This document shows, piece by piece, positions 5,236 to 64,000 of a stretch of 64,000 nt of DNA. This stretch comes from Candidatus Omnitrophota bacterium (GTDB lineage: Bacteria; Omnitrophota; Gorgyraeia; Tantalellales; Tantalellaceae): contig JBAYES010000002.1 of assembly GCA_041667545.1 (NCBI GenBank), positions 5,035 through 69,034 of the forward strand, written 5' to 3'. Below the pieces are notes generated by a model. That model saw only the letters and a list, made by a program, of their open reading frames with translations. It was not told where the DNA came from and did not search any database. The position numbers were made by a program, and so were the translations under genes. Numbering within the stretch: position 1 is the first letter of the stretch; every line of letters starts with the position of its first letter.

Positions 5236-5670
5236 CTACGGGGACACACTTAGAAGCATGTGCATTTACCCGGTACGGAAATAAGCTTGTACCGGGTAAG
5301 TATATTTTTAAAGTCCACTCATGGGGGGGTAACATCTCAGTCATCTGCAGTAAATTCCTACCCCGTCGTCACGAGGAGCCCCCGAAGGGGGCGACGAAGT
5401 GATCTCAAAATATGAAAATATCTCAGAGAGGGATTGCTTCGTCACTCACTTCGTTCGTTCCTCGCAACGACGGTCGGAGAGGGATTGATTCGGCCCTATG
5501 CCAAGTCTGCCGAAATCCTGAGCCATAGCATTTATCACGATACGAAGGGCTTCACCCGCCTTCGGCGGGTTCGTAAAGACGGGCGTGGGGACGCTACATT
5601 TCTGCGGAGAACTGAAATGTTACCATGGGGGACACTTACGAGCATAATTTTGCACCCGGTACAAGGGTAA
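5236..5670. repeat. family A-related composite repeat (copy 2), bracketed by direct repeats GGGACAC(AC)TTA..AGCAT...CACCCGGTAC
   Basis: inverted copy of the 775-979 modules; flanking imperfect direct repeats at 5241-5296 and 5628-5670 each containing CCCGGTAC...GTACCGGG-type hairpins. Confidence 0.55.
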
Positions 5671-5758: not shown

Positions 5759-6409
5759 ATGTTTGAAAGAACAATAAATCGTATTTGCGGGTACAAAAAC
5801 GCGCTTTATAGGTTTAAAAAGCTTGGGTTTGTCAGGGTTTTTTCGGATAATCTGTCAGATGCCGTAGGGGTAACGCCTTCACAGGTGCGCAAAGATTTTT
5901 CCATGTTCGCCATTTCCGGGAATAAACGGGGCGGGTATAAGGTAGACGAGCTTTTGGAGAAAATATGTTTTATCCTGGGGAAAGACGATGTATGTAATGT
6001 GGTCGTGGTCGGCGCGGGGAATATAGGTCTTGCTCTTATGAAATACGGAGGTTTCGAAAAAGAGAACATGACCATAAAAGCGGCTTTTGACATAGATCCG
6101 GCAAAATTTTCCGAAAAAGAAAATATACCTGTTTTGCCGCTTTCAGAACTTGCCGTATATGTGAAAAAGGAAGATATTAAAGTGGGCATAATAGCCGTAC
6201 CCGATATTGCCGCTCAGCATGTGGCCGATCTTATGGTTGCGGCGGGGGTGAGGGGTATATTGAATTTCGCGCCGATACTTTTGAGATGCGGCGGCGAGAC
6301 GGTTGTTAAGAACGTTAATCTTGAGCTTGAGCTTGAGAACATAATATATTTTGTCAACGCGCGCGAAAAAAAAGGGACAGTCCTGGAACATGAAACCAAG
6401 CAGCCTTAA
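5759..6409 (+). CDS. rex: redox-sensing transcriptional repressor Rex
   Basis: 216 aa; N-terminal wHTH 'GVTPSQVRKDFSMF', Rossmann 'VVVVGAGNIGLAL' NADH-binding; typical Rex length. Confidence 0.8.
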   Translation: MFERTINRICGYKNALYRFKKLGFVRVFSDNLSDAVGVTPSQVRKDFSMFAISGNKRGGYKVDELLEKICFILGKDDVCNVVVVGAGNIGLALMKYGGFEKENMTIKAAFDIDPAKFSEKENIPVLPLSELAVYVKKEDIKVGIIAVPDIAAQHVADLMVAAGVRGILNFAPILLRCGGETVVKNVNLELELENIIYFVNAREKKGTVLEHETKQP

Positions 6410-8219
6410 GCGGTCGATGATATATAATTTTCTTATTGTTATACTCTTTATGAGTGTCTCCATAGGGGTTCTCGGGTTCAATGTTATACGTAAAGAGATA
6501 ATCGAAAAAGCCCAGCATCGTGTGGATAGTTATATGAAGTCTGCCCGCATACTTTACGAGACTATGATATCTTCCACCGGTAAAGAGCTGAGCCTTTTGA
6601 CCAAGCTCGATGATGTGGAAGAGATAAGGACGAGGGCGGATCTTGACTATCTTCACATTGTTGATAAACAGGATTTTGATAAGCTTAGAAGCGGGATAGC
6701 CCTAAGTTCATTGGATGGGAGCGAGGCGTCCGGAACAAGAATAATATCTTCCCGTGAACTCGAGAAAATGGGAAGGGGCCTGGATGAAAAGCTGAGAACA
6801 GAGGTAATTTCGACCCCGGGGGAGAAAGACTTTGAACCGTATTATCTGGAAGGTGTAATGGCCATGGAATACGCGAGGCCTGTTCTGGACGGAAACGGGA
6901 ACGTTGAAAAAGTGCTTTACGGCGGCAGGATAATAAACGGAAGAAGCGAAGTAGTGGACACGATGAGAGATATCATGTTCGGAGAAGAAGTATATTCAGG
7001 AAAACCTGTCGGCACGGTAACTATTTTTCAGGGAGATGTGCGAATAGCGACCAATGTCGTTAAGAGATCCGGCGACAGAGCCGTGGGAACAAAAGTTTCC
7101 CGGGAAGTTTATGAACATGTCATCGGCTCCGGCAAGAACTGGTCGGACAGGGCGCTTGTTGTTTCCGACTGGTATCTTACGGCATACGAGCCGATAAGGG
7201 ATATAGAGGGCGACATAATAGGAATGCTCTATGTGGGGATACTTGAACGGCCTTTCTTTGACATGGCAAAAAAAGTGTTTCTAATGTTCTTTGCCATAGT
7301 GACGGGTTCTGTTTTTCTGGCCTTGATCATATCGCTACTGCTCGCGGGGTCTTTTGTCAAGCCTGTTAATAGACTTGTTGAAGGAACGGCAAGGATCTCC
7401 AGGGGAGAGCTTGATCACAGGGTCAATGTGGATACGTCCATTGAGGACCTGAGATGGCTCGAAGTCTCGTTCAATGAAATGGCCGAGAGCCTTGAGTCCC
7501 GGAACAATGACCTTGTTCTGGCAAAGGAAAAAAGGGAGGCCCTGAACAAGAGGTATCTTGACCTGATAAGTTTTGTTTCCCATGAGCTTAAGGGCATATT
7601 AGCCTCGACAATACTCAATGCTTACTCGGTCAGGGATGGTTTTTTGGGGATGGTCAATTTTAAACAGCAGAAGGCGCTGGACTCTATAACACGTAACCTT
7701 GATCATCTCGACGCTACCGTAAAGAATTTTCTCAATCTGAGCCGTATTGAGAAAGGGGATATGGGCGTAATTAAAAAACAGGTTTTTCTAAGAGAAGAGG
7801 TTTTCGCGGTGGCTGTTGAGACTTTTTTGAAACAGATATCCGAAAAAGAAATGGAAATAAGGAACAATATACCTGCCGAACTTTCGGTGCCGGCCGACAG
7901 GGATCTTCTGCAGGTGGTAGCGAACAATCTTGTAAGTAATGCCGTTAAATACGGATCGCGCGGGGGAAAAATAGAGATAAATTTTGAAGACAGAGAAGAT
8001 AAATTTAAAATATCGGTGTATAATGACGGAAGGGTTTTGGGAGAAGGCGAGATCAAGAACCTATTTCACAGGTTTTCGCGGTTGGACGCTCCGGAAACAA
8101 AGAACGCTAAAGGCACTGGACTTGGCCTTTTCATTTCCAGGGAAATAGTGGAGAAACACGGCGGGACTATGTACGTGGAGCCGGGCAAGGACGGTAACTC
8201 GTTCGTATTTGAGATATAG
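6390..8219 (+). CDS. sensor histidine kinase (double-Cache periplasmic domain, HAMP, HisKA, HATPase_c)
   Basis: about 610 aa from ATG 6390 (signal/TM 'MIYNFLIVILFMSVSIGVLGF'); second TM then HAMP; H-box 'SHELKGILAS'; C-terminal G-box 'GTGLGLFISREIV'; stop codon TAG is supplied by the first 3 nt of the MITE TIR. Confidence 0.75.
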   Translation: MKPSSLKRSMIYNFLIVILFMSVSIGVLGFNVIRKEIIEKAQHRVDSYMKSARILYETMISSTGKELSLLTKLDDVEEIRTRADLDYLHIVDKQDFDKLRSGIALSSLDGSEASGTRIISSRELEKMGRGLDEKLRTEVISTPGEKDFEPYYLEGVMAMEYARPVLDGNGNVEKVLYGGRIINGRSEVVDTMRDIMFGEEVYSGKPVGTVTIFQGDVRIATNVVKRSGDRAVGTKVSREVYEHVIGSGKNWSDRALVVSDWYLTAYEPIRDIEGDIIGMLYVGILERPFFDMAKKVFLMFFAIVTGSVFLALIISLLLAGSFVKPVNRLVEGTARISRGELDHRVNVDTSIEDLRWLEVSFNEMAESLESRNNDLVLAKEKREALNKRYLDLISFVSHELKGILASTILNAYSVRDGFLGMVNFKQQKALDSITRNLDHLDATVKNFLNLSRIEKGDMGVIKKQVFLREEVFAVAVETFLKQISEKEMEIRNNIPAELSVPADRDLLQVVANNLVSNAVKYGSRGGKIEINFEDREDKFKISVYNDGRVLGEGEIKNLFHRFSRLDAPETKNAKGTGLGLFISREIVEKHGGTMYVEPGKDGNSFVFEI

Positions 8220-8369
8220 GGTTCTGCAAAATAGCGTTTTCACGTCGTTGCGAGGGAGCGAAGCGACCGAAGCAATCTTATAACTTGTTATATTTATTGA
8301 GATTGCTTCGTCACTCACTTCGTTCGTTCCTCGCAAAGACGGTATAAAAGTCCATTTTGCAGAACCCTA
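8217..8369. repeat. MITE-like inverted-repeat element, family A (copy 3)
   Basis: TIRs TAGGGTTCTGCAAAAT / ATTTTGCAGAACCCTA; imperfect 150-bp palindrome with core CGTCGTTGCGAGGGAGCGAAGCGACCGAAGCAATC; flanked by 10-bp direct repeat ATTTGAGATA (8207-8216 and 8370-8379). Confidence 0.75.
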
Positions 8370-8396
8370 ATTTGAGATATATAAAGGAGGTTAAGA

Positions 8397-8753
8397 GTGC
8401 GCACACCTTTAGAGACCATACGAAAGAAAAGGGCGGAAGCCATCAGCAGAATAGTTGGGAAGGGATATCTGTCCACCAAAAGGGTTTATGTGGGAATGGC
8501 TACCTGTGAAATAGCCGCGGGATCGGATGAAGTGATGAAGGTGTTCCAGGACGCCATAAAAGGCGGGCTTTCAGGAGTGTATCTGAGCCAGAAGGGCTGT
8601 GCCGGAAGATGTAACCTTGAGCCTACCGTAGAAGTAGTGGAAACGGGAAAGATCCCGGTCAAGTATGGAAAGATCGATCCGGTACGGGCAAAAGAAATAA
8701 TAGAAAAGCATTTAAAAAGAGGCGAGGTCATAAAAGAGTGGGTCATAAAATAA
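8397..8753 (+). CDS. thioredoxin-like [2Fe-2S] ferredoxin-domain protein (NuoE/HydB-N-terminal-like fold, only 3 Cys)
   Basis: 118 aa, GTG start after AAAGGAGG; 'GMATCEIAAGS...GCAGRCNLEP' resembles the Trx-like 2Fe-2S domain but has only three cysteines. Confidence 0.45.
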   Translation: MRTPLETIRKKRAEAISRIVGKGYLSTKRVYVGMATCEIAAGSDEVMKVFQDAIKGGLSGVYLSQKGCAGRCNLEPTVEVVETGKIPVKYGKIDPVRAKEIIEKHLKRGEVIKEWVIK

Positions 8754-12883: not shown

Positions 12884-14272
12884 ATGAAATATATAGATGA
12901 AAAGAATATCTTCAGGCTTTTGGATAAAGGAAAAGATCCTCCCGATGGGGCCGTAGATGAGGCAATAGATAAAAGTCTGGCGCTCAAAAGGCTTTCTCTT
13001 GAAGAGACCTCATATCTTCTTAACTCACGAAGCAAGCGGGATGTCAGACGGATACTTGAGGCGGCTTCTCTGGTAAAAAGCAGGATATACGGCAGTAGGG
13101 TCGTTATATTCGCCCCTCTCTATATAAACAATACCTGTGTAAATAATTGTTTGTACTGCGCGTTCAGAAAAGACAATATTCTCATAAACCGCCGCCGGCT
13201 CGACATGGAGGATATTGCTAAGGAAACGGTCTCTCTTCTTAAAAGCGGTCATAAAAGGGTGCTCGCGGTCTCATCAGAAAGCGGGAATGAAGGCCTTGCC
13301 GAAGCCCGGTATTACGTTGAGGCCATAAGAACGATGTACGGTCAGGAATATAAGAATAGCAGGATAAGGCGGATAAACATTAACTGCGCCCCTCTTCCGG
13401 AAGAAGGGTTTAAACTTTTAAAGTCTTCCGGCATAGGCACCTACCAGCTTTTTCAGGAAACATACCATGGTGATACATATAAAAAAGTCCATCCTTCGGG
13501 CCCGAAGAGCGACCCCGATAACCGGCTTGACGCTATTGACCGGGCTTTCCGGGCGGGGATAGACGATGTCGGGATAGGGGCCTTATTCGGGCTTTACGAT
13601 CACAAATTCGAGGTGCTGGCTCTTCTTTCTCATGTGGAACATCTGGAAAGGACTTTCGGAGTGGGGCCCCACACCATTTCCGTTCCGAGAATAGAACCGG
13701 CTTTGGGAACAGATATAAATGAAACATCTCCGTACAAAGTTTCGGACGACGATTTTAAAAAATTGGTGGCTGTTCTGCGGCTGGCCGTGCCGTATACGGG
13801 CATAATATTGTCTACACGTGAAACTCCGGAAATGAGGGACGAGCTTTTTCGTCTGGGTATTTCTCAGGTGAGCGCGGCTTCACGTACTTCTCCCGGAGGG
13901 TACTCCGGAGAAAAGGCCGGATCTGAAGGGGCCCAGTTCTTCCTGAGCGATCATCGCAGTCTTGATGAGGTTATAGCAAGCCTGATCGAAAGGGGCGCCA
14001 TACCCAGTTTCTGCACCGCCTGCTACAGGAAGGAGAGAACGGGAGAAACTTTTATGGGTCTTGCAAGACCCGGAACGATAAAGGGAAAATGCGCTCTCAA
14101 TGCCCTTATTACGCTTAAAGAATATCTCAAGGATTTTGCTTCAGAAGAAGTTAAGGAGAAGGGAAACGCTCTTATAGAAAGACTTAAAGAAGAACTCAGC
14201 GATCAGGAGAAAAAACAGCTTGATGAATTTTTTATTCATATAGAGCGAGGGGTCAGAGACGAGCATGTATAA
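12884..14272 (+). CDS. hydG: [FeFe]-hydrogenase H-cluster maturase HydG (radical SAM tyrosine lyase)
   Basis: 462 aa; radical-SAM 'CVNNCLYCAF'; C-terminal CX2CX22C motif 'CTACYRKERTGETFMGLARPGTIKGKC' diagnostic for HydG versus ThiH. Confidence 0.85.
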   Translation: MKYIDEKNIFRLLDKGKDPPDGAVDEAIDKSLALKRLSLEETSYLLNSRSKRDVRRILEAASLVKSRIYGSRVVIFAPLYINNTCVNNCLYCAFRKDNILINRRRLDMEDIAKETVSLLKSGHKRVLAVSSESGNEGLAEARYYVEAIRTMYGQEYKNSRIRRININCAPLPEEGFKLLKSSGIGTYQLFQETYHGDTYKKVHPSGPKSDPDNRLDAIDRAFRAGIDDVGIGALFGLYDHKFEVLALLSHVEHLERTFGVGPHTISVPRIEPALGTDINETSPYKVSDDDFKKLVAVLRLAVPYTGIILSTRETPEMRDELFRLGISQVSAASRTSPGGYSGEKAGSEGAQFFLSDHRSLDEVIASLIERGAIPSFCTACYRKERTGETFMGLARPGTIKGKCALNALITLKEYLKDFASEEVKEKGNALIERLKEELSDQEKKQLDEFFIHIERGVRDEHV

Positions 14273-14310
14273 AAAACGCCGATAGTTCCTGGATTTCCCG
14301 GAACGCTAAA

Positions 14311-14427
14311 GCAGAGCTCTGCGAAACGGATTTTTATCCCGTCGTTGCGAGGGAGCGAAGCGACCGAAGCAATCTCATAATTTGTTATGTATATGAAGAT
14401 GGCTGAACAAATCATATTGCGCAGAAC
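14311..14427. repeat. MITE-like element family A, variant copy 4a
   Basis: contains core CCCGTCGTTGCGAGGGAGCGAAGCGACCGAAGCAATCTCATAATTTGTTATGTATATGAAGATG; ends ...TTGCGCAGAAC. Confidence 0.55.
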
Positions 14428-14443
14428 TTTAGGAACTCTAAAG

Positions 14444-14556
14444 TAGGGTTCTGGGAAATAGCGTTTTCACGTCGTTGCGAGGGAGCGAAGCGACCGAAGC
14501 AATCTCATAATTTGTTATGTTATGTATATGAAGATGACAGAACAAATCGATATTTT
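14444..14556. repeat. MITE-like element family A, variant copy 4b (tandem to 4a)
   Basis: starts TAGGGTTCTGGGAAATAGCGTTTTCACGTCGTTGCGAGGGAGCGAAGCGACCGAAGCAATCTCATAATTTGTTATG...; right end degenerate. Confidence 0.55.
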
Positions 14557-14596
14557 ACATAACCATCGGAATTCTAAAGTTTAAAGGAGGAAGTTG

Positions 14597-14986
14597 ATGC
14601 CTGGAAAAATATTGATAGTTGATGACGATCCCGATTTCCGAGAAGCCATGGCTACCCTGCTTGAAGCGAAAGGATATGATGTTGGAACGGCTTCGGACGG
14701 TGAAGCGGGCCTTGCCAAAGCAAGGGAAATATTGCCCGATATTATTTTGCTGGATGTTATGATGTCGGGTACGACCGAGGGGTTTGATGTGGCCAGAAAA
14801 CTTCATGCCGAAGACAAACTTAAGGACATTCCGGTCGTTATGACGACCGGAATAAGAAAAGATATGAACCTTCCTTTCGGGTTTGAGCCCGACAACGACA
14901 CTTTGCCCGTAAAAGAGGTGCTTGAAAAACCGGTTAAGCCCGAAACCCTTCTCTCAGCGGTAGCAAAACACATAAGAACGGGATGA
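14597..14986 (+). CDS. stand-alone response-regulator receiver (CheY-like REC) protein
   Basis: about 129 aa; 'KILIVDDDPDFREAMATLLEAKGYDV...ILLDVMM' with phospho-acceptor Asp context; no output domain; stop overlaps next start (ATGA). Confidence 0.7.
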   Translation: MPGKILIVDDDPDFREAMATLLEAKGYDVGTASDGEAGLAKAREILPDIILLDVMMSGTTEGFDVARKLHAEDKLKDIPVVMTTGIRKDMNLPFGFEPDNDTLPVKEVLEKPVKPETLLSAVAKHIRTG

Positions 14987-17440: not shown

Positions 17441-19540
17441 ATGAAAAACTCAGAAAAGAACGGGACATCTTCCATAGCTGATATTTACGGTGTGAATGTT
17501 TTTGGAATAAAGAATATGCGGAATTATCTATCGGATAAAGCGTATAAGTCGCTTCTATCTACGATACGAGAGGCAAAATCCATAGATCCCGGGATAGCCG
17601 ATGAAGTAGCCGACGCGATGAAGTCATGGGCGACGGCAAAAGGGGCTACCCATTTCACCCATTGGTTCCAGCCGCTTACGGGAACAACGGCGGAAAAGCA
17701 CGATTCTTTCATAGATCCCGACAATGACGGCGGAGTGATTTTGAAATTCTCCGGCAGAGAACTCATTAAAGGAGAGCCCGACGCTTCCAGTTTTCCGTCA
17801 GGCGGGTTAAGAGCAACTTTTGAGGCCCGCGGATATACGGCATGGGACCCTACGTCCCCGGCCTTTATTAAGGAAGCAAGTAACGGGGCTACGCTTTGTA
17901 TTCCCACGGCTTTTTATTCTTACCATGGGGACGCTCTTGACAAAAAAACCCCTCTACTAAGATCCATGTCGGCTCTTTCCAGGCAGGTATGCCGTCTTGC
18001 AAAACTTTTTGGGATACCTACTGAAGGTAAGAGGGCTTATCCAACGCTTGGCGCGGAACAGGAGTATTTTCTTATAGATAAGTCGTTCTATGAAGGCAGG
18101 CTTGATCTCATACAGACGGGCAGGACCCTTTTTGGGAGCGCTCCGGCAAAACATCAACAGCTTGAAGACCATTATTTCGGGGCCATAAAACCCCGGATCG
18201 TGGATTTTATGGATGAGGTTGATAGAGAATTATGGAAACTCGGCATACCTGCGAAGACACGCCACAACGAAGTTTGTCCCGCGCAGTTCGAGATCGCTCC
18301 GGTGTACGAGGAACTGAACCTCGCGGTAGACCATAATATGATGACTATGCAGGTGCTCAGGGAAGTTTCCGAACGGCACGGGCTGGTATGCCTTTTGCAT
18401 GAGAAACCTTATGCCGGTGTTAATGGTTCGGGTAAGCACAATAACTGGGCGCTTCTGGGGCCTGACGGAAAGAACTGGCTTACCCCGGGAGATAATCCGC
18501 ATGAGAATGCCATATTCCTTACGATGATATGCGCTCTGATGAAAGGAATAGACACACATGCCGAGATGTTGAGAGCGACGGTAGCTTCCGCCGGGAACGA
18601 CCACAGGCTCGGAGCCAACGAGGCGCCGCCGGCAATAATGTCGATATTTCTCGGCGACCAGCTTAACGATGTGATCGAACAGCTTGAAAAAGGCGCCGCG
18701 AAAAGTTCTAAAAAAGCCGACGCCATAGAAATAGGCGTTGATTCTCTTCCTCCGCTTCCTCGCGATGTTACCGACAGGAACCGCACAAGCCCGTTCGCTT
18801 TTACGGGTAATAAGTTCGAATTCCGGGCGGTAGGATCCAGTCAGAATTGTGCCGGAGCGAACGTCGTGCTGAACACCATAGTGGCCGAGGCCTTGGATGA
18901 TATATGTTCTGAGCTTGAAGCCAAAGTAAAGAACAAAAAAGATTTTAATAAAGTGCTTCAGAGGATCCTTTCGGGTATTGTGAAAAAACACAAGCGGATA
19001 ATCTTTAACGGTGATAATTATACAAAAGAATGGCACCGGGAGGCCAAGAAACGCGGACTTCCCAATCTGAAGAACACTCCTGAATCTTTGTCTAAGGTGA
19101 AAGACAAGAAGAACGTGGAAATGTTCGGGAAATACAAGGTCCTTTCCCGGACGGAACTTTTTTCACGTTATGATATTTACACCGAACAGTATGAGAAAGC
19201 TATTAAAATAGAGGGGGACGTGGCGCTTGCCATGGCAAGAACAATGATAGTTCCCGCGGCCGTAAGATATCAGGGGGAGCTTGCCTCGTCGGTAAAGGGA
19301 ACAGAGAGTCTCGGATGTAAGAACTCAGGAGCTAAAAAACTTTTGAAAAAAGTTTGCGCGCTTTCCGAGGATATACTTGAAGGCATAGACAGGCTTGAAA
19401 AAGCTCTGGGAGGACATTCTTCGGGCGTGATCATAAAGGAAATGAATTTTTTGAGAGAAGCAGTTGACGAGCTTGAGACGGTAATACCTGAAAGCTTGTG
19501 GCCGCTTCCGTCATACGCGGAGATGCTTTTTCTTCTTTAG
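17441..19540 (+). CDS. glnN: glutamine synthetase type III
   Basis: 699 aa, the size of GSIII (GlnN) proteins; catalytic-domain similarity across the protein; nitrogen-gene neighbourhood. Confidence 0.8.
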   Translation: MKNSEKNGTSSIADIYGVNVFGIKNMRNYLSDKAYKSLLSTIREAKSIDPGIADEVADAMKSWATAKGATHFTHWFQPLTGTTAEKHDSFIDPDNDGGVILKFSGRELIKGEPDASSFPSGGLRATFEARGYTAWDPTSPAFIKEASNGATLCIPTAFYSYHGDALDKKTPLLRSMSALSRQVCRLAKLFGIPTEGKRAYPTLGAEQEYFLIDKSFYEGRLDLIQTGRTLFGSAPAKHQQLEDHYFGAIKPRIVDFMDEVDRELWKLGIPAKTRHNEVCPAQFEIAPVYEELNLAVDHNMMTMQVLREVSERHGLVCLLHEKPYAGVNGSGKHNNWALLGPDGKNWLTPGDNPHENAIFLTMICALMKGIDTHAEMLRATVASAGNDHRLGANEAPPAIMSIFLGDQLNDVIEQLEKGAAKSSKKADAIEIGVDSLPPLPRDVTDRNRTSPFAFTGNKFEFRAVGSSQNCAGANVVLNTIVAEALDDICSELEAKVKNKKDFNKVLQRILSGIVKKHKRIIFNGDNYTKEWHREAKKRGLPNLKNTPESLSKVKDKKNVEMFGKYKVLSRTELFSRYDIYTEQYEKAIKIEGDVALAMARTMIVPAAVRYQGELASSVKGTESLGCKNSGAKKLLKKVCALSEDILEGIDRLEKALGGHSSGVIIKEMNFLREAVDELETVIPESLWPLPSYAEMLFLL

Positions 19541-21405: not shown

Positions 21406-21427
21406 GGACCGGATCTAACGATAAGAG

Positions 21428-21580
21428 TAGAGTTCTGCAAAATAGCTGTTTCACGTCGTTGCGAGGGAGCGAAGCGACCAAAGCAATCCTATATCTTATT
21501 GTATTTATTGAGATTGTTTTGTCACTCACTTTGTTCGTTCCTCGTAAAGACGGAATAAAAGTCTATTTTGCAGAACCCTA
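21428..21580. repeat. MITE-like inverted-repeat element, family A (copy 5)
   Basis: TIRs TAGAGTTCTGCAAAAT / ATTTTGCAGAACCCTA; flanked by perfect 10-bp direct repeat ACGATAAGAG (21418-27 and 21581-90). Confidence 0.75.
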
Positions 21581-21606
21581 ACGATAAGAGAACAAAGGAG
21601 GTCAAA

Positions 21607-22944
21607 ATGAGAATCATTATAAGAGCGTTAAAGATCCTCCCGCTGATATTTTTGTCAACCGCTATGACTGTTTCGGCAGAAGAGCCTACGGCGGCTACGA
21701 ATGCCGTGGCTATCGACACGATCTGGATACTGATGGCGGCTTTTCTGGTGTTTTTCATGCAAGCGGGATTTGCAATGGTCGAAACGGGATTTACGAGAGC
21801 GAAGAATGCCTGCAACATAATGATGAAGAATCTTATGGATTTCGCCGTGGGTTCGGTAGCGTTTTGGGCGGTGGGCTTCGGCATTATGTTCGGGGCTTCG
21901 GCTTTCGGTGTTTTCGGAACGAGCGGTTTCTTCCTGTCCACCGGAGATCCTTCCACAAGCGAGGGTTTGTGGCAGTACGCCTTCTGGATGTTCCAGGCGG
22001 TTTTCGCGGCAACCGCCGCTACAATAGTTTCCGGAGCTATGGCTGAAAGGACAAAGTTCAAATCCTATATGGCATATAGCGCCGTCATAACGGCCTTGAT
22101 ATATCCTGTGGTTGGACATTGGATATGGGGAGATGGTTGGCTGTCCGCAAAAGGAATGATAGATTTCGCGGGTTCTACAGTAGTTCATTCAACAGGGGGT
22201 TGGGCGGCTTTGGCCGGAGCCATACTTTTGGGGCCTCGTATAGGAAAATATTCTCCCGACGGTTCCTCGAACGCTATTACGGGCCATAATATTCCGCTTG
22301 CCTCATTGGGTGTATTCATATTGTGGTTCGGCTGGTTCGGTTTTAATGCCGGAAGTACAACTTCCGGAACGGATCTAAGTATCGCGACAATAGCCGTGAC
22401 GACTAATCTCGCGGCCGCCGCGGGATCCATCAGCGCGATGATATTCGTATGGTTCAAATTCGGGAAACCGGACATAAGTATGTCTTTGAACGGGGCTCTT
22501 GCCGGCCTTGTGGGTATAACCGCGGGATGCGCCAATGTTTCCCCTTCGAGCGCTCTCATGATAGGAGCGGTATCCGGGATACTTGTTGTTATAAGCGTTG
22601 AGTTCCTTGACAAGGTACTAAAGATAGATGATCCCGTTGGCGCTGTTTCGGTTCATGGGGTCTGCGGAGCCTGGGGAACTCTTGCTGTGGGACTTTTCGC
22701 CCAGGAAACATTCGGCGGAGTGAACGGCCTCTTTCACGGGGGAGGGATGACACAGTTCATTACCCAGCTTACCGGTGTGGTAAGTGTTTTCGCGTGGGTG
22801 TTCACTTCCGCGTTTATCGTCTTCTATGTTATCAAGGTTGTCATGGGACTCAGGGCCTCCGATGAAGAACAGCTCAAGGGGCTCGATATATGCGAGCATG
22901 GTATGGAGGCGTATTCCGGGTTCCAGACCTTTATGACACAGTAG
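21607..22944 (+). CDS. amtB: ammonium transporter
   Basis: about 445 aa from ATG 21607 with signal peptide; Amt signature 'DFAGSTVVHSTGGWAALAGAILLGPRIGKY', 11 TM helices. Confidence 0.85.
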   Translation: MRIIIRALKILPLIFLSTAMTVSAEEPTAATNAVAIDTIWILMAAFLVFFMQAGFAMVETGFTRAKNACNIMMKNLMDFAVGSVAFWAVGFGIMFGASAFGVFGTSGFFLSTGDPSTSEGLWQYAFWMFQAVFAATAATIVSGAMAERTKFKSYMAYSAVITALIYPVVGHWIWGDGWLSAKGMIDFAGSTVVHSTGGWAALAGAILLGPRIGKYSPDGSSNAITGHNIPLASLGVFILWFGWFGFNAGSTTSGTDLSIATIAVTTNLAAAAGSISAMIFVWFKFGKPDISMSLNGALAGLVGITAGCANVSPSSALMIGAVSGILVVISVEFLDKVLKIDDPVGAVSVHGVCGAWGTLAVGLFAQETFGGVNGLFHGGGMTQFITQLTGVVSVFAWVFTSAFIVFYVIKVVMGLRASDEEQLKGLDICEHGMEAYSGFQTFMTQ

Positions 22945-23118
22945 GATTGGCGCCGCGTTTTACATTGGCGTCGAGAACGAAAAGTAATAAGTAAAAGTAG
23001 AAAGAAGAAAAGCGGAAGATATATGAGGAGAACGAGAAATGACGTTTTGAAGTCGTCCTGAGGGTCCTGCCAAACCTGAGAGGCAGCTAAGGGAGGGGCC
23101 GATGGCTAAGGAAAAACT

Positions 23119-23316
23119 TAGGGTTATGCAAAATAGCGTTTTCACGTCGTTGCGAGGGAGCGAAGCGACCGAAGCAATCTTGTAACTTGTTATATTTATT
23201 GAGATTGCTTCGGCCTTCAACCATGCTCAGGACGAAATCCTGAGCGAAGCGAAGGGCTTCGTTACTCACTTCGTTCCTCGCAAAGACGTTATAAAAGTCC
23301 ATTTTGAAGAACTCTA
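23119..23316. repeat. MITE-like inverted-repeat element, family A (long variant, copy 6)
   Basis: TAGGGTTATGCAAAAT...CCATTTTGAAGAACTCTA; flanking direct repeat AGGAAAAACT (23109-18 and 23318-27, 1-nt offset). Confidence 0.65.
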
Positions 23317-23343
23317 AAGGAAAAACTAAAAAAGGAGGTTGAG

Positions 23344-24696
23344 ATGTACGTTCTTAAATGGTTTAGGAGGATGGTGATCGGTTTGCCGGCGGCTATACTG
23401 GCTATGTCGGGGTCTTTGGCGCAAGCCAGTCCCGCCGCTGATGTGGGCGGTTATGCATTGATTTCCGGTATAGATACCATGTGGGTGCTTATAGCGGCTT
23501 TTATGGTCTTTATAATGCAGGCCGGTTTCGGTATGCTGGAGGCAGGCCTTATAAGGACCAAGAATACCTGTAATGTGCTTATGAACAATTTTCTGGATTT
23601 CTGTATGGCATCGATGGGATTTTTTATTTTCGGATATGCCATAATGTTCGGTACGGGAAACGGGTTCATGGGGTTTACGGGATTTATGCTCATAGGCGCC
23701 GCGCATGAAGGGAGTATCCCTCTTGAGGCGGCATGGCTTTTTCATGCCGTTTTCTGCGGAGCGGCCGCGACCATCGTAGCGGGAGGAATAGCAGAGAGAA
23801 TGAAGTTCAAATGTTATCTTATATATTCTTTTCTGATATCCGCTACGATATATCCTATAGTAGGACATTGGGTTTGGGGAGGAGGATGGCTTGCCGAGAT
23901 GGGGTTCGGTGATTTCGCAGGATCTACAGTTGTCCACGCTGTCGGCGGTACGGCCGCACTTGTGGGCACGGCCATTTTGGGGCCGAGAATAGGTAAGTTC
24001 AACAAGGACGGCTCAGCTAATGCCATAGAAGGGCATTCAATGGCGCTTGCCTCGCTTGGGGCACTTATACTATGGTTCGCGTGGTTCGGATTCAATCCCG
24101 GATCAACTTTGGCGGTAGGTGACGGTAGTTTGATAGCGAAAGTCGCTGTTAACACAAATCTCGCGGCGGCCGCGGGAGGGCTTGTAGCTATGTTCTTCGC
24201 GTGGAAAAAGTTCGGGAAACCGGATCTTTCAATGACTATGAACGGGGCTCTTGCGGGGCTTGTGGCCGTAACAGCTCCCTGCGCGTTCGTTCTTCCGTAC
24301 GAATCGATAATAATAGGAGGAGTAGGCGGAATAATAGTTGTTCTGGGAACCGTGTTCCTCGATAAGATACACATCGATGATCCTGTGGGAGCGGTTCCGG
24401 TACATATGATGAACGGTATATGGGGGACGCTTGCTGTGGGGCTTTTCGGGCAAGAAGCATTAGGGCTTGCACGAGACGGCCTCTTTCATGGCGGCGGGTT
24501 TACTCAGCTTGGGGTTCAGGCCTTGGGAGCCTTGGCCGTAGTGCTTTTTGTCGGAGCGGGTATGACCGTCATATTCAAAACAATAGACCTGGCTATGGGG
24601 CTGAGAGTGTCCAGGGAAGAAGAGCTTAAGGGGTTGGATATAAGCGAACATGGTATGGAAGCTTATGCGGGATTCCAGATATTCACTACAAAGTAG
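23344..24696 (+). CDS. amtB: ammonium transporter (second paralogue)
   Basis: 450 aa; 'DFAGSTVVHAVGGTAALVGTAILGPRIGKF'; RBS AAAAGGAGG. Confidence 0.85.
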   Translation: MYVLKWFRRMVIGLPAAILAMSGSLAQASPAADVGGYALISGIDTMWVLIAAFMVFIMQAGFGMLEAGLIRTKNTCNVLMNNFLDFCMASMGFFIFGYAIMFGTGNGFMGFTGFMLIGAAHEGSIPLEAAWLFHAVFCGAAATIVAGGIAERMKFKCYLIYSFLISATIYPIVGHWVWGGGWLAEMGFGDFAGSTVVHAVGGTAALVGTAILGPRIGKFNKDGSANAIEGHSMALASLGALILWFAWFGFNPGSTLAVGDGSLIAKVAVNTNLAAAAGGLVAMFFAWKKFGKPDLSMTMNGALAGLVAVTAPCAFVLPYESIIIGGVGGIIVVLGTVFLDKIHIDDPVGAVPVHMMNGIWGTLAVGLFGQEALGLARDGLFHGGGFTQLGVQALGALAVVLFVGAGMTVIFKTIDLAMGLRVSREEELKGLDISEHGMEAYAGFQIFTTK

Positions 24697-24748
24697 ATCC
24701 CGGGGGTTTAGTGTATAAGTGAAAGAGGGTAATGCGATGAAGGATATG

Positions 24749-24900
24749 AGAGTTCTGCAAAATAGTTGGTTCACGTCGTTGCGAGGGAGCGAAGCGACCG
24801 AAGCAATCCTATATCTTATTGTATTTATTGAGATTGCTTCGTCACTCACTTTGTTCGTTCCTCGCAAAGACGGAATAAAAGTCTATTTCTCATAGCCCTA
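24749..24900. repeat. MITE-like element family A (copy 7, degenerate right TIR)
   Basis: AGAGTTCTGCAAAATAGTTGGTTCACGTCGTTGCGAGGGAGCGAAGCGACCGAAGCAATC...GTCTATTTCTCATAGCCCTA. Confidence 0.6.
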
Positions 24901-33543: not shown

Positions 33544-33550
33544 GGATCCA

Positions 33551-33725
33551 GGGACGGTTCTCATTTTGAACCTACACCTGTCCCTATGTTTTGGGGGACA
33601 GGTGTAGGTTCAAGGAAAGGACAGGTGTAGGTTCAAGGAAAGGACAGGTGTAGGTTCAAGTTGGGGACAGGTGTAGGTTCAAATCGAGGGACGGGTGTAG
33701 GATTAGATTCAGAACCGTCCCTGAA
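33551..33725 (+). repeat. tandem direct-repeat array (5 x about 23 bp GGACAGGTGTAGGTTCAAGGAAA-like) with terminal conserved hairpin, bounded by inverted repeat GGGACGGTTC...GAACCGTCCC; copy 2
   Basis: seen directly; left arm AACCTACACCTGTCCC (33569-84) is exact reverse complement of the repeat-unit core; final unit GGGACGGGTGTAGGATTAGATTCAGAACCGTCCCTGAA about 90% identical to 4905-4944; ends 10 nt before gltB ATG. Confidence 0.8.
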
Positions 33726-53271: not shown

Positions 53272-53675
53272 CGCCGCAAGGACCTGGGCTTCCCTGCGAA
53301 ACGACACGATGGGTCTGATATGTCCCTTCCGGGGACGTTCGCCCGGCTCCAGCGGCCGGGCTCACTCCACGTTGAGCTGTTTTACCCCTCGCTCTTTCTC
53401 TGTAAGCTTGCTAAAGGTTCGCTCGGGGACCGATCTAAAACAAGCTCACCGAGGCCCCGTCCGGGACATATCAGCCCCATCGTTCGCCGCAAGGGCCTGG
53501 GATTCCCGGAGAGGGCGTTGGACGAGCGAGCGGGCATGGTCCACGCTGTGTCCTGAGCGAAACCGAGCGAAGGGAGGGCACGGGCCCTCGTGGGAGCGAG
53601 CGAGTCCGTCGAGCGCAGATTTTCTCGCTGGGAAAATCAAGCGTCCCTCGCAGGGAAGCCCAGGTCCTTGCGGCG
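53272..53675. repeat. family B composite nested inverted-repeat element
   Basis: perfect 28-bp TIRs CGCCGCAAGGACCTGGGCTTCCCTGCGA (53272-99) / TCGCAGGGAAGCCCAGGTCCTTGCGGCG (53648-75); inner 15-16-bp inverted repeat GGGTCTGATATGTCCC (53311-26) / GGGACATATCAGCCCC (53463-78); internal duplication of the left TIR region at 53482-53515. Confidence 0.7.
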
Positions 53676-56325: not shown

Positions 56326-56373
56326 AGCAACGGATACCGGAAAAGATGAAGATAATACTTAGTGGATGATTTT

Positions 56374-56587
56374 TAGAGTTCTGCAGAATGGACTTTTATA
56401 ACGTTTTTACGAGGAATGAACGAAGTGAGTGACGAAGCCCTTCGTATCGTGATAAATGCTATGGCTCAGGATTTAGGCAGAGTTAGTAAATAGCCGAAGC
56501 AATTTCAATAAAGATGACAAGTTATAAGATTGCTTCGGGCGCTTCGCTCCCTCGCAACGACGTAAAAACGATATTTCGCAGAACCCA
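56374..56587. repeat. MITE-like element family A (long variant, copy 8)
   Basis: TAGAGTTCTGCAGAAT...ATATTTCGCAGAACCCA; flanking direct repeat GGATGATTTT / GGATGGTTTT (1 mismatch). Confidence 0.7.
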
Positions 56588-56614
56588 GGATGGTTTTAAA
56601 AAAGGAGAAGAATA

Positions 56615-57311: not shown

Positions 57312-58472
57312 ATGAGACAGGTAAAGTTAAAGGAAGACATATACTGGGTAGGGGGTATAGACTGGGATCTCAGGAATTTTCATGGGTATTCAACTGAAAG
57401 AGGGTCTACATACAACTCGTATCTCATTATTGACGAAAAAAAAGTTCTTGTAGATACCGTGAAAAGCCATTTTTTCGCGGAGATGGCGGAGAGAGCGGGA
57501 AAGATAGCGGACCTTTCGGAAATAGATTATGTTGTTTCAAGCCACACAGAGATGGACCATTCCGGGAGCCTTCCCGAGATAATGAAGCTTTGTCCCGGTG
57601 CTACGATCATAACTTCGCCTAACGGAGAGAAAGCGCTCAAAAAACATTACCGCCACAGTTGGAAAACTAAGGTCGTTAATACCGGAGACAAGGTAAACAT
57701 AGGGAAGAGAGACCTTCAGTTCATTCTTATGCCTATGGTACATTGGCCCGATTCGATGGCGACTTATATTGAGAAAGACAAACTTCTTTTCCCCAACGAC
57801 GCTTTTGGACAGCACATCGCGTCTACGGAAAGATTCGATTCGGAAATGGAATGGGATGTTATAAGGAGTGAGGCGGCGAAGTATTATGCGAATATTGTAA
57901 TGCCTTACGGGGCTCAGGTAACTAAGGCCCTGGATGCTGTGTCAAAGCTTGATGTCGATACGATAGCTCCAAGCCATGGAATAATATGGCGGGAGCATAT
58001 AGGTAAAATAATAGAGCTGTACAGGGAATGGTCTGCAAATATAACACAGAAAAAAGCGGTTATAGTTTACGATACAATGTGGCATTCCACAGAGAAGATC
58101 GCCGGGGCCGTGTTCCGAGCTTTTGATGAGAGCGGCATAAAAGCGATTCCCATGAATCTCGCTTCAAATCATATATCGGATATTATCACGGAAATACTTA
58201 CGGCAAGATATATATGCGTAGGGTCTTCTACTCTGAATAACGGTCTATTGCCGCAGGCCGCGGCTTTTTTAACTTACATGAAGGGACTCGCGCCGAAGAA
58301 CAGGAAGGCTCTTGCTTTCGGATCTTACGGCTGGGGAGGGCAGAGTATCGATCAGATAGACGAGGTACTTAAATCCTGCGGGTTTGAGACATTTGAAAAA
58401 ATAAAGATACAATGGGTGCCGTCCGGGGAAGAACTTGCAGATATAAAACAGCGTGTAACTTCGTATATATAG
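57312..58472 (+). CDS. fprA: flavodiiron protein (A-type flavoprotein; rubredoxin:oxygen/NO oxidoreductase)
   Basis: 386 aa; metallo-beta-lactamase di-iron motif 'SHTEMDHSG', C-terminal flavodoxin domain. Confidence 0.8.
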   Translation: MRQVKLKEDIYWVGGIDWDLRNFHGYSTERGSTYNSYLIIDEKKVLVDTVKSHFFAEMAERAGKIADLSEIDYVVSSHTEMDHSGSLPEIMKLCPGATIITSPNGEKALKKHYRHSWKTKVVNTGDKVNIGKRDLQFILMPMVHWPDSMATYIEKDKLLFPNDAFGQHIASTERFDSEMEWDVIRSEAAKYYANIVMPYGAQVTKALDAVSKLDVDTIAPSHGIIWREHIGKIIELYREWSANITQKKAVIVYDTMWHSTEKIAGAVFRAFDESGIKAIPMNLASNHISDIITEILTARYICVGSSTLNNGLLPQAAAFLTYMKGLAPKNRKALAFGSYGWGGQSIDQIDEVLKSCGFETFEKIKIQWVPSGEELADIKQRVTSYI

Positions 58473-58684
58473 AGTTCTGCGAAATGAATTTTTATACCGT
58501 CTTTGCGAGGAACGAACGAAGTGAGTGACGAAGCCCTTCGTATCGTGATAAAGGCTATGACTCAGGATTCCGCCAGACGTAATAAAAGGGCGGAGCAATC
58601 TTAAAATATATAATAAGTTATGAGGTTGCTTCGGTCGCTTCGCTCCCTCGCAATGACGTGGAATCGCTCTTTCGCAGAACCCTA
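58470..58684. repeat. MITE-like element family A (long variant, copy 9)
   Basis: TAGAGTTCTGCGAAAT...CTTTCGCAGAACCCTA; flanking CGTATAT(A/C) partial direct repeat. Confidence 0.7.
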
Positions 58685-63930: not shown

Positions 63931-64000
63931 TAGGGTTCTGAAAAATGTCGTTTTCACGTCGTTGCGAGGGAGCGAAGCGACCTAAGTCCTTCGTCCCGCG
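63931..64000. repeat. MITE-like element family A (copy 10, truncated by window end)
   Basis: TAGGGTTCTGAAAAATGTCGTTTTCACGTCGTTGCGAGGGAGCGAAGCGACC... Confidence 0.6.

Follow-up and report, generated by a model that had tools for sequence, protein, structure and literature searches.

A miniature inverted-repeat transposable element of an Omnitrophota bacterium with probable Shine-Dalgarno-anchored insertion

Correia and RUP elements duplicate TA, PATE elements derived from IS200/IS605 have no terminal inverted repeats, leave no duplication and insert beside a fixed tetra- or pentanucleotide, and Tn7 targets attTn7. ERIC also duplicates TA (PMC3184786), and the insertion sequences (IS) IS1397/ISKpn1 and IS621 insert into repetitive extragenic palindromic (REP) sequences (PMC3184786). 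Nezha, an element of Anabaena/Nostoc with ISNpu3 as its proposed partner, is short (about 130–170 bp), forms a hairpin and has terminal inverted repeats; its published template copy carries a 10-bp direct repeat, and empty and filled sites occur between relatives (PMC3184786, PMC6042816). Chunjie of Geobacter uraniireducens is 178–235 bp long and combines a very stable hairpin with a 9-bp direct repeat (PMC3184786, PMC10969869). Both resemble family A, the dispersed element analyzed here in a 64,000-nucleotide stretch of Candidatus Omnitrophota contig JBAYES010000002.1 (this whole stretch is hereafter the window). We conclude that family A is almost certainly a mobile MITE (miniature inverted-repeat transposable element), i.e., a non-autonomous DNA transposon, of an Omnitrophota bacterium, and that a MITE with Shine-Dalgarno-anchored targeting is, with high probability, the best overall explanation of its distribution.

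The copy at 8217–8369 illustrates the arrangement. It is a 153-bp near-palindrome that opens with TAGGGTTCTGCAAAAT and closes with the exact reverse complement, and its two arms, of 65–70 nt, together form a long imperfect hairpin with a fold energy of −42.8 kcal/mol as DNA and −73.9 as RNA (z about −10). A perfect 10-bp duplication, ATTTGAGATA, directly abuts both ends, and the GGAG of the next gene's Shine-Dalgarno motif begins 6 nt past the right duplication copy. The features at this junction are as follows.

6390..8219, + strand: Cache/HAMP histidine kinase gene (Pfam domains; 609-aa gene call on the identical contig L001)
8207..8216, no strand: left target-site duplication copy, ATTTGAGATA
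8217..8369, + strand: family A element, 153 bp, with 16-bp terminal inverted repeats TAGGGTTCTGCAAAAT / ATTTTGCAGAACCCTA
8370..8379, no strand: right target-site duplication copy, ATTTGAGATA
8383..8390, + strand: Shine-Dalgarno motif of the first hydrogenase-operon gene, AAAGGAGG; GTG start at 8397

The 16-bp sequence TAGRGTTCTGCRAAAT is present at both element ends. Across the elements that share these ends, conservation extends over the first ~35 nt, which comprise the 16-nt end, 4 nt, a T-run and then GTCAT; in family A, each arm also carries a subterminal hairpin after the conserved T-run. The 16-nt end pattern matches the window 12 times (0.08 expected from shuffles) and the 35-nt core 8 times (0 expected). 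Family A elements measure 153–215 bp, with short tandem variants of 120–124 bp, and they contain no gene and lie below the size needed to encode a transposase. Copies are 83–95% identical with few compensatory changes, as expected of fairly young copies, which vary too little to tell whether the hairpin is under selection within the family. Two other identities were rejected. Rfam returned no match at gathering score anywhere in the window, the sole match being at chance level (E = 0.33), which speaks against an RNA gene; a terminator or promoter was dismissed on finding neither a terminator-like T-run nor a match to a promoter consensus.

A BLAST search of the element against the window identified seven family A copies, and the window also holds two tandem short variants. 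In addition to the copy described above, these are the following.

14312..14567, + strand: tandem short variants, units 14312–14431 and 14444–14567
21428..21580, + strand: family A copy, 153 bp, with duplication ACGATAAGAG at 21418–21427 and 21581–21590
23119..23316, + strand: family A copy, 198 bp, with an extra internal module of ~45 bp
24748..24900, + strand: older family A copy, 153 bp, with mutated ends (GAGAG.., ..CATAGCCCTA), upstream of glnB (ATG 24928)
56374..56587, − strand: long family A variant, 214 bp, with duplication GGATGATTTT / GGATGGTTTT at 56364–56373 and 56588–56597
58470..58684, − strand: long family A variant, 215 bp, with 8-bp duplication CGTATATA / CGTATATC containing one mismatch
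63931..64000, + strand: incomplete family A copy that crosses the window end

A preliminary description of this DNA had already listed the seven copies, and all are real, although the one placed at 24749 starts at 24748, has G in place of T, and has a decayed target duplication. The duplications it quoted are likewise genuine in four copies, with the amendment that AAGGAAAAACT, at 23108–23118 and 23317–23327 around the 23119–23316 copy, is 11 bp rather than 10; the fixed 10-bp length that it proposed gives way to an observed range of 8–12 bp. Its variants at 14311 and 14444 are indeed related and correspond to the two tandem units given above, but those it placed at 775 and 5236 represent a different family that has only internal modules in common with family A. 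Pieces of this second family lie at ~775–980 and 5328–5624; they have other ends (GGTAACATYTCAGT...) and a 7–8-bp duplication, ATGGGGG, share the right-arm hairpin module with family A, and are not situated beside a ribosome-binding site.

Several lines of comparative evidence indicate that family A has moved. Twenty-three elements carry perfect 8–12-bp duplications, each of a different sequence, and related Omnitrophota contigs provide empty sites for four of the window copies. At the kinase/hydrogenase junction, the syntenic contig L003, whose kinase is 73% identical, contains ATTCGAGATA once, followed by ACTAAAGGAGG. The junction between a 287-aa gene and amtB1 is empty in L157 (tgACGATAGAGcaacaaaggagg), that between amtB1 and amtB2 is empty in L155 and L157, and that between amtB2 and glnB is empty in L155, L157, and L158. 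These contigs thus supply the empty sites with a single target that the preliminary description had asked for, at the kinase/hydrogenase site and at all three amtB/glnB junctions. AGGAGG is already present in every empty site, and hence the motif belongs to the target rather than to the element. Family A therefore displays the structural hallmarks of a MITE: it is short (MITEs measure less than about 600 bp) and gene-less, has terminal inverted repeats and differing duplications, is dispersed, and is present or absent at orthologous sites.

An inherited, REP-like regulatory or structural hairpin that is not mobile, with flanking repeats arising by coincidence, would account for the great stability of the hairpin, for its consistently intergenic position, and for the recurrence of its internal modules, detached from these ends, in replicons of cyanobacteria, Hymenobacter, and Treponema. 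However, the host sequence duplicated around the element is peculiar to each copy, relatives' empty sites carry the target once, a single site is occupied in opposite orientations, and paralogues are more alike than the two copies that share that site. We consider such a hairpin extremely unlikely, and the preliminary description's preference for a mobile MITE over a conserved regulatory hairpin is borne out by the copy-specific duplications and the empty sites.

The shared site is found in L005, whose kinase is 91% identical and in which an element occupies the same 10-bp target as the 8217 copy, in inverted orientation. The L005 copy is 90.2% identical to a paralogue vs 86.3% to the 8217 copy, and the latter shares 95% identity with paralogues elsewhere. 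Furthermore, L155 contains a separate, decayed, and reversed copy at the amtB1 junction. The comparisons support the interpretation that one site was hit independently in two lineages. Alternatively, the window and L005 copies could descend from one inherited insertion that was later inverted via its own inverted repeats: the 10-bp target is identical in both, 86% identity is about that of unconstrained DNA between genomes with 88–94% identical flanks, and long inverted repeats can promote inversion. Yet the 8217 copy and the L005 copy each resemble different paralogues elsewhere, which points to separate, later insertions, and repeated use is also seen at other sites, making inversion in place an unlikely account.

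The tandem pair offers a second case of repeated use. GGAAYKCTAAAG occurs three times, bounding and separating the two units (14300–14311, 14432–14443, and 14568–14579), and the pair lies upstream of AGGAGG at 14585–14590, the motif of a response-regulator gene. We read the pair as probably two hits on one target; a tandem pair that shares its middle repeat is expected if the target survives each insertion. As a separate observation on this locus, relative L003 carries hydF, encoding a hydrogenase maturase, between hydG and the response regulator (17764–19060), and at the corresponding place in the window (14272–14597) hydF is absent and the tandem element pair is found instead.

To describe where the elements lie, we used a collection gathered by element ends alone, in which the surroundings were not a criterion. 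In 50 of the 64 elements, AGGAG or GGAGG starts 13–18 nt outside one end, whereas only 1.8% of control positions in the same loci have a motif at that distance (binomial p about 1e-74); the interval from 19 to 47 nt is devoid of motif starts. The target consensus consists of weakly A/T-rich duplicated bases, two free bases, and then AAA(A/G)GGAGG. Distance and duplication length are strictly coupled: 21 elements combine a perfect duplication with a GGAG located 12–21 nt beyond one end, and in all 21 of them adding 6 to the duplication length gives the GGAG offset, with lengths of 8 (n=1), 9 (n=8), 10 (n=7), 11 (n=4), and 12 (n=1). It follows that the distance from one junction to the GGAG downstream of it is always 6 bp, while the other junction lies 8–12 bp further upstream. 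When decayed duplications are included, the best-matching length is the predicted one in 39 of 51 cases. Within the window, the copies that obey the rule are those at 8217, 21428, and 56374 (duplication length 10), 23119 (11), 58470 (8), and 14444 (12). Behind the 21428–21580 copy, GGAGG is located at 21597–21601 and the amtB1 ATG at 21607; behind the 23119–23316 copy, GGAGG is at 23334 and the amtB2 ATG at 23344; and GGAG begins 14 nt past the 58470–58684 copy. Which end faces the motif shows no bias (roughly 11 vs 9 among elements with differing ends). The adjacency to stop codons emphasized in the preliminary description now appears to be a by-product, the determinant being the Shine-Dalgarno motif of the downstream gene.

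Selection could in principle generate proximity to ribosome-binding sites if the MITEs insert at random or with an A/T preference and are retained where neighbors are spared or where the distance of the hairpin is beneficial. In keeping with this, the genomes are compact with mostly short intergenic spacers, the duplicated bases are weakly A/T-rich, and the motif is followed by a real gene start in 38 of 52 motif-adjacent insertions. Selection would, however, be expected to produce a broad, one-sided spread instead of a 13–18-nt window with an empty zone beyond it, and it does not predict the exact relation between offset and duplication length. Even outside long open reading frames (ORFs), only 8% of control positions have a motif nearby. 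Moreover, at least five insertions (L085, L100, L119, L152, and L153) adjoin, at the same spacing, motifs with no gene start behind them, and the 8217 copy truncated a gene instead of avoiding it. We accordingly regard selection as improbable and judge it very likely, from the sequence comparisons, that the position rule reflects target recognition.

Several points weigh against the overall explanation. The element sample was drawn with one exact-match pattern and so represents the closer relatives, and a motif at the canonical offset is missing in 14 of the 64 elements, several of which have the degenerate forms AAGGTG or AAGGGA at that position. A rigid DDE transpososome would not ordinarily produce a stagger that ranges over 8–12 bp while one edge stays fixed. 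The evidence is entirely comparative, with no transposition event observed. Finally, neither the window nor the 91 fetched loci contained a full-length element that combines these ends with a transposase gene, although it was here that the autonomous IS with the same terminal inverted repeats suggested in the preliminary description was sought.

One further copy bears on the shape of the target. In L104 (2638–2790), a motif lies at the canonical distance on both sides, with CTCCT 15 nt to the left and AGGAG 15 nt to the right, which hints that the ideal target may be symmetric and that one half-site is enough.

These observations suggest a model in which family A would be moved in trans by a transposase encoded elsewhere. 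The insertion machinery would read an A-rich stretch followed by GGAGG, i.e., Shine-Dalgarno DNA, and would make a staggered cut, setting one junction exactly 6 bp upstream of GGAG and a second one 8–12 bp further upstream; repair would then convert the stagger into the 8–12-bp duplication, and either element end may face the motif. As neither the motif nor the duplicated bases are disrupted on the side of the gene, the ribosome-binding site of the downstream gene is preserved, and the cost to the upstream gene is a few codons at most. The target likewise survives insertion, such that the same site can be hit again. Within operons, the inserted element would presumably be co-transcribed as a long hairpin.

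The kinase gene illustrates the cost to the upstream neighbor. Its TAG stop (8217–8219) is formed by the opening three bases of the element; were the insertion removed, the kinase would end ...FEIYKGG*, stopping just after the ribosome-binding site. The five closest untruncated orthologues (P0003–P0007) end ...EI(T/C/L/R/V)KGG, consistent with the preliminary description, in which the element donates the stop codon and the ancestral tail reads EIYKGG. By this comparison, the window kinase has lost a 4-residue xKGG tail, its last 4 codons having been displaced by the insertion. The visible effects of insertion are thus an altered gene end and the separation of the kinase stop from the next gene's ribosome-binding site, which it formerly overlapped. 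The same insertion is present base for base in L001, an independent assembly from ENA, and the occupied kinase/hydrogenase site is seen in assemblies made separately at ENA and JGI. In a Logan assembly, L002 and L006 are contigs that terminate no more than ~60 nt from where the element lies, as expected if assembly broke at a dispersed repeat. The genes neighboring the window copies include this Cache/HAMP histidine kinase, the [FeFe]-hydrogenase operon, two amtB genes, and glnB. The closest homologues are from Candidatus Omnitrophota, and one window protein is NCBI MFA6635602.1, from an Omnitrophota metagenome-assembled genome (MAG).

We searched for the parent by exact-pattern scans of genomes, metagenomes, and viral contigs. 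A scan of one genome per species (185,579 species) with TAGRGTTCTGCRAAATNNNNTTTT yielded 21 loci, and a scan of metagenome contigs yielded 70, the end pattern plus T-run being used in both; once chance single hits were discarded, all real matches were short elements or solo ends, and viral contigs gave only chance matches to the end pattern. Among the fetched loci and the window, inverted end pairs 0.6–3.5 kb apart revealed no transposase-bearing element. A search for multi-copy ORFs found no parent element, no ORF in any fetched locus had the IS4 Y-R-E-K signature, and solo ends with a correctly placed motif did not lead to a parent. Individual leads were discarded: the solo end in L114 runs into an smc gene and that in L142 seems to lead into a different gene at its 3′ end, while the ORF in L097 is a plant AP2 gene and that in L096/L073 is FabH. 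An ISAs1-family parent was not adopted, as the ends of the E. coli H-repeat, read directly, are not convincingly similar, and Synechocystis pSYSG, checked for IS4Sa-type elements, lists no transposase. IS4 subgroups (IS231, ISH8, and IS4Sa) and ISAs1 make duplications of variable length, 8–12 bp or 8–10 bp, and the ends of ISAs1 begin CAGGG where those of family A begin TAGGG. A link to an IS4 subgroup or ISAs1 is a lead and not a result, and the enzyme is somewhat more plausibly a classical DDE transposase than anything else.

The variable stagger with one fixed edge leaves room for an enzyme other than a cut-and-paste DDE transposase. If the motif set the position of a first nick and the second strand were then cut loosely, a DNA or RNA copy of the hairpin might be inserted, much as in target-primed insertion or by a guide-based enzyme that pairs with the motif; we give this little credence. 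One junction is invariant whereas the other varies over 5 positions, two whole-collection scans gave no transposase partner, and the elements are dominated by hairpins that covary between lineages, all of which would suit a nick-first process. Perfect 16-bp terminal inverted repeats kept across phyla are, on the other hand, a hallmark of the sites that transposases bind; poly-A and other marks of a retro-element are absent, the use of both orientations fits a symmetric two-end complex, and variable duplications occur in the IS families named above.

The ends of family A extend well beyond Omnitrophota. Elements of 64–353 bp that share the ends but have individual duplications were found in MAGs of Calditrichia (one MAG, 7 contigs), KSB1, Nitrospira, and Cytophagia, in unclassified bacteria, and in metagenomes Ga0172377 (family A itself), SDBV01, and Ga0190284. 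Dozens of further copies are present in related metagenome contigs, and a second Omnitrophota MAG (L079) has a solo end only. The interior of the element varies between lineages, always with a small hairpin on each arm, and the stems of these hairpins covary (ATTGC/GCAAT, ATTCC/GGAAT, ATTTC/GAAAT, and ATCCT/AGGAT); under a strict test, covariation holds in 28 of 128 arms vs 1.7 in shuffles. It is possible, if on balance doubtful, that these elements form a superfamily across bacterial phyla that homes on the Shine-Dalgarno motif with single-nucleotide precision while the second cut falls loosely 8–12 bp away. If so, and we put this just as tentatively, the target might be read by protein contacts or guide pairing in a manner that has no described precedent.

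The internal modules have a distribution of their own. Modules of the form GTCATTGCGA...CACTTCGTTCC...CTCGCAATGAC and relatives occur without TAGAGTTCTGCAAAAT ends in distant phyla, on replicons that include cyanobacterial plasmids, a Hymenobacter plasmid, and Treponema saccharophilum replicons.

L159: module-only occurrence, Fischerella AP018300
L160: module-only occurrence, Hymenobacter CP014770
L161: module-only occurrence, Nostoc punctiforme NC_010630
L162 and L163: module-only occurrences, Treponema saccharophilum

A BLAST search of annotated records with a panel of related elements likewise returned only internal hairpin modules without the ends, and family A itself had no BLAST match among plasmids. 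The hairpin modules thus seem to spread or to be reused independently of the element ends. In L105 (2067–2234), L107 (776–1001), and L108 (3953–4174), the GCGAAGC hairpin is replaced in place by a perfect hairpin, CCCTGTACCGTACGGTACAGGG; this change is a module swap within otherwise similar family A copies.

Two other structures in the window deserve mention. A G+C-rich intergenic region of ~404 nt at 53272–53675 is closed by a perfect 28-bp stem and contains an inner 29-nt inverted repeat; its predicted RNA fold has an energy of −233 kcal/mol (z = −9.1), and Rfam gave no match to it, whether at gathering score or at E<=1. Possible readings are a structured RNA not described so far and a set of nested palindromic elements. 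At 33549–33723, just upstream of a large glutamate-synthase-like ORF, the inverted repeats CAGGGACGGTTCT...AGAACCGTCCCTG bound 4–5 tandem 23-bp units of GGACAGGTGTAGGTTCAAGGAAA, which could be arrayed binding sites for a regulator or could constitute a third element.

If the position rule does reflect target recognition, it represents a landing strategy not described before, in which the landing pad is the ribosome-binding site that precedes most genes. Such a strategy would explain how one insertion per 6–7 kb is tolerated, even within operons, in a genome with almost no spare DNA, and an enzyme that places DNA at a fixed distance from AGGAGG would be of use for insertion just upstream of genes. 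For annotation, the elements are relevant in that they break assemblies, create spurious small ORFs, and change gene ends, as in the kinase here; they may also separate translationally coupled cistrons. For element evolution, the occurrence of common modules in elements whose ends differ makes one ask by what route such modules spread.

Our literature text search, which left most subscription journals outside its reach, did not find the end sequence or a MITE described from Omnitrophica, and it returned nothing relevant on ribosome-binding sites as targets of an IS or MITE, which given that coverage is weak evidence. Compared with described elements, family A is like Correia/NEMIS, ERIC, and RUP in being small, gene-less, hairpin-forming, and intergenic, with terminal inverted repeats, and presumably also in being co-transcribed with neighboring genes. 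Membership in the Correia, ERIC, or RUP families was rejected since the duplications here comprise 8–12 bp of arbitrary sequence and the end sequences are unrelated; in addition, no fixed distance to a ribosome-binding site has been described for these families. The defined ends and duplications of family A likewise separate it from REP/BIME/REPIN sequences, short palindromic units that lack both terminal inverted repeats and target duplications, and its inverted ends and 8–12-bp duplications from PATE elements. Nezha probably has different ends, as none of the 21 genome-scan loci is titled cyanobacterial, a comparison that concerns the exact end pattern and not the sequences themselves; no link to ribosome-binding sites is mentioned for Nezha in PMC3184786 or PMC6042816. 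Chunjie differs in having 21-bp ends, and no Geobacter locus matched the exact end pattern, again without comparison of the sequences. The REP-targeting ISs and Tn7 follow the same safe-site logic as family A, in which a recurrent, harmless, and recognizable sequence serves for landing, but family A is distinguished by a Shine-Dalgarno target located before most genes, by free orientation, and by an 8–12-bp duplication with one fixed edge. The element itself is ordinary in kind; the position rule and the ends shared across phyla set it apart.

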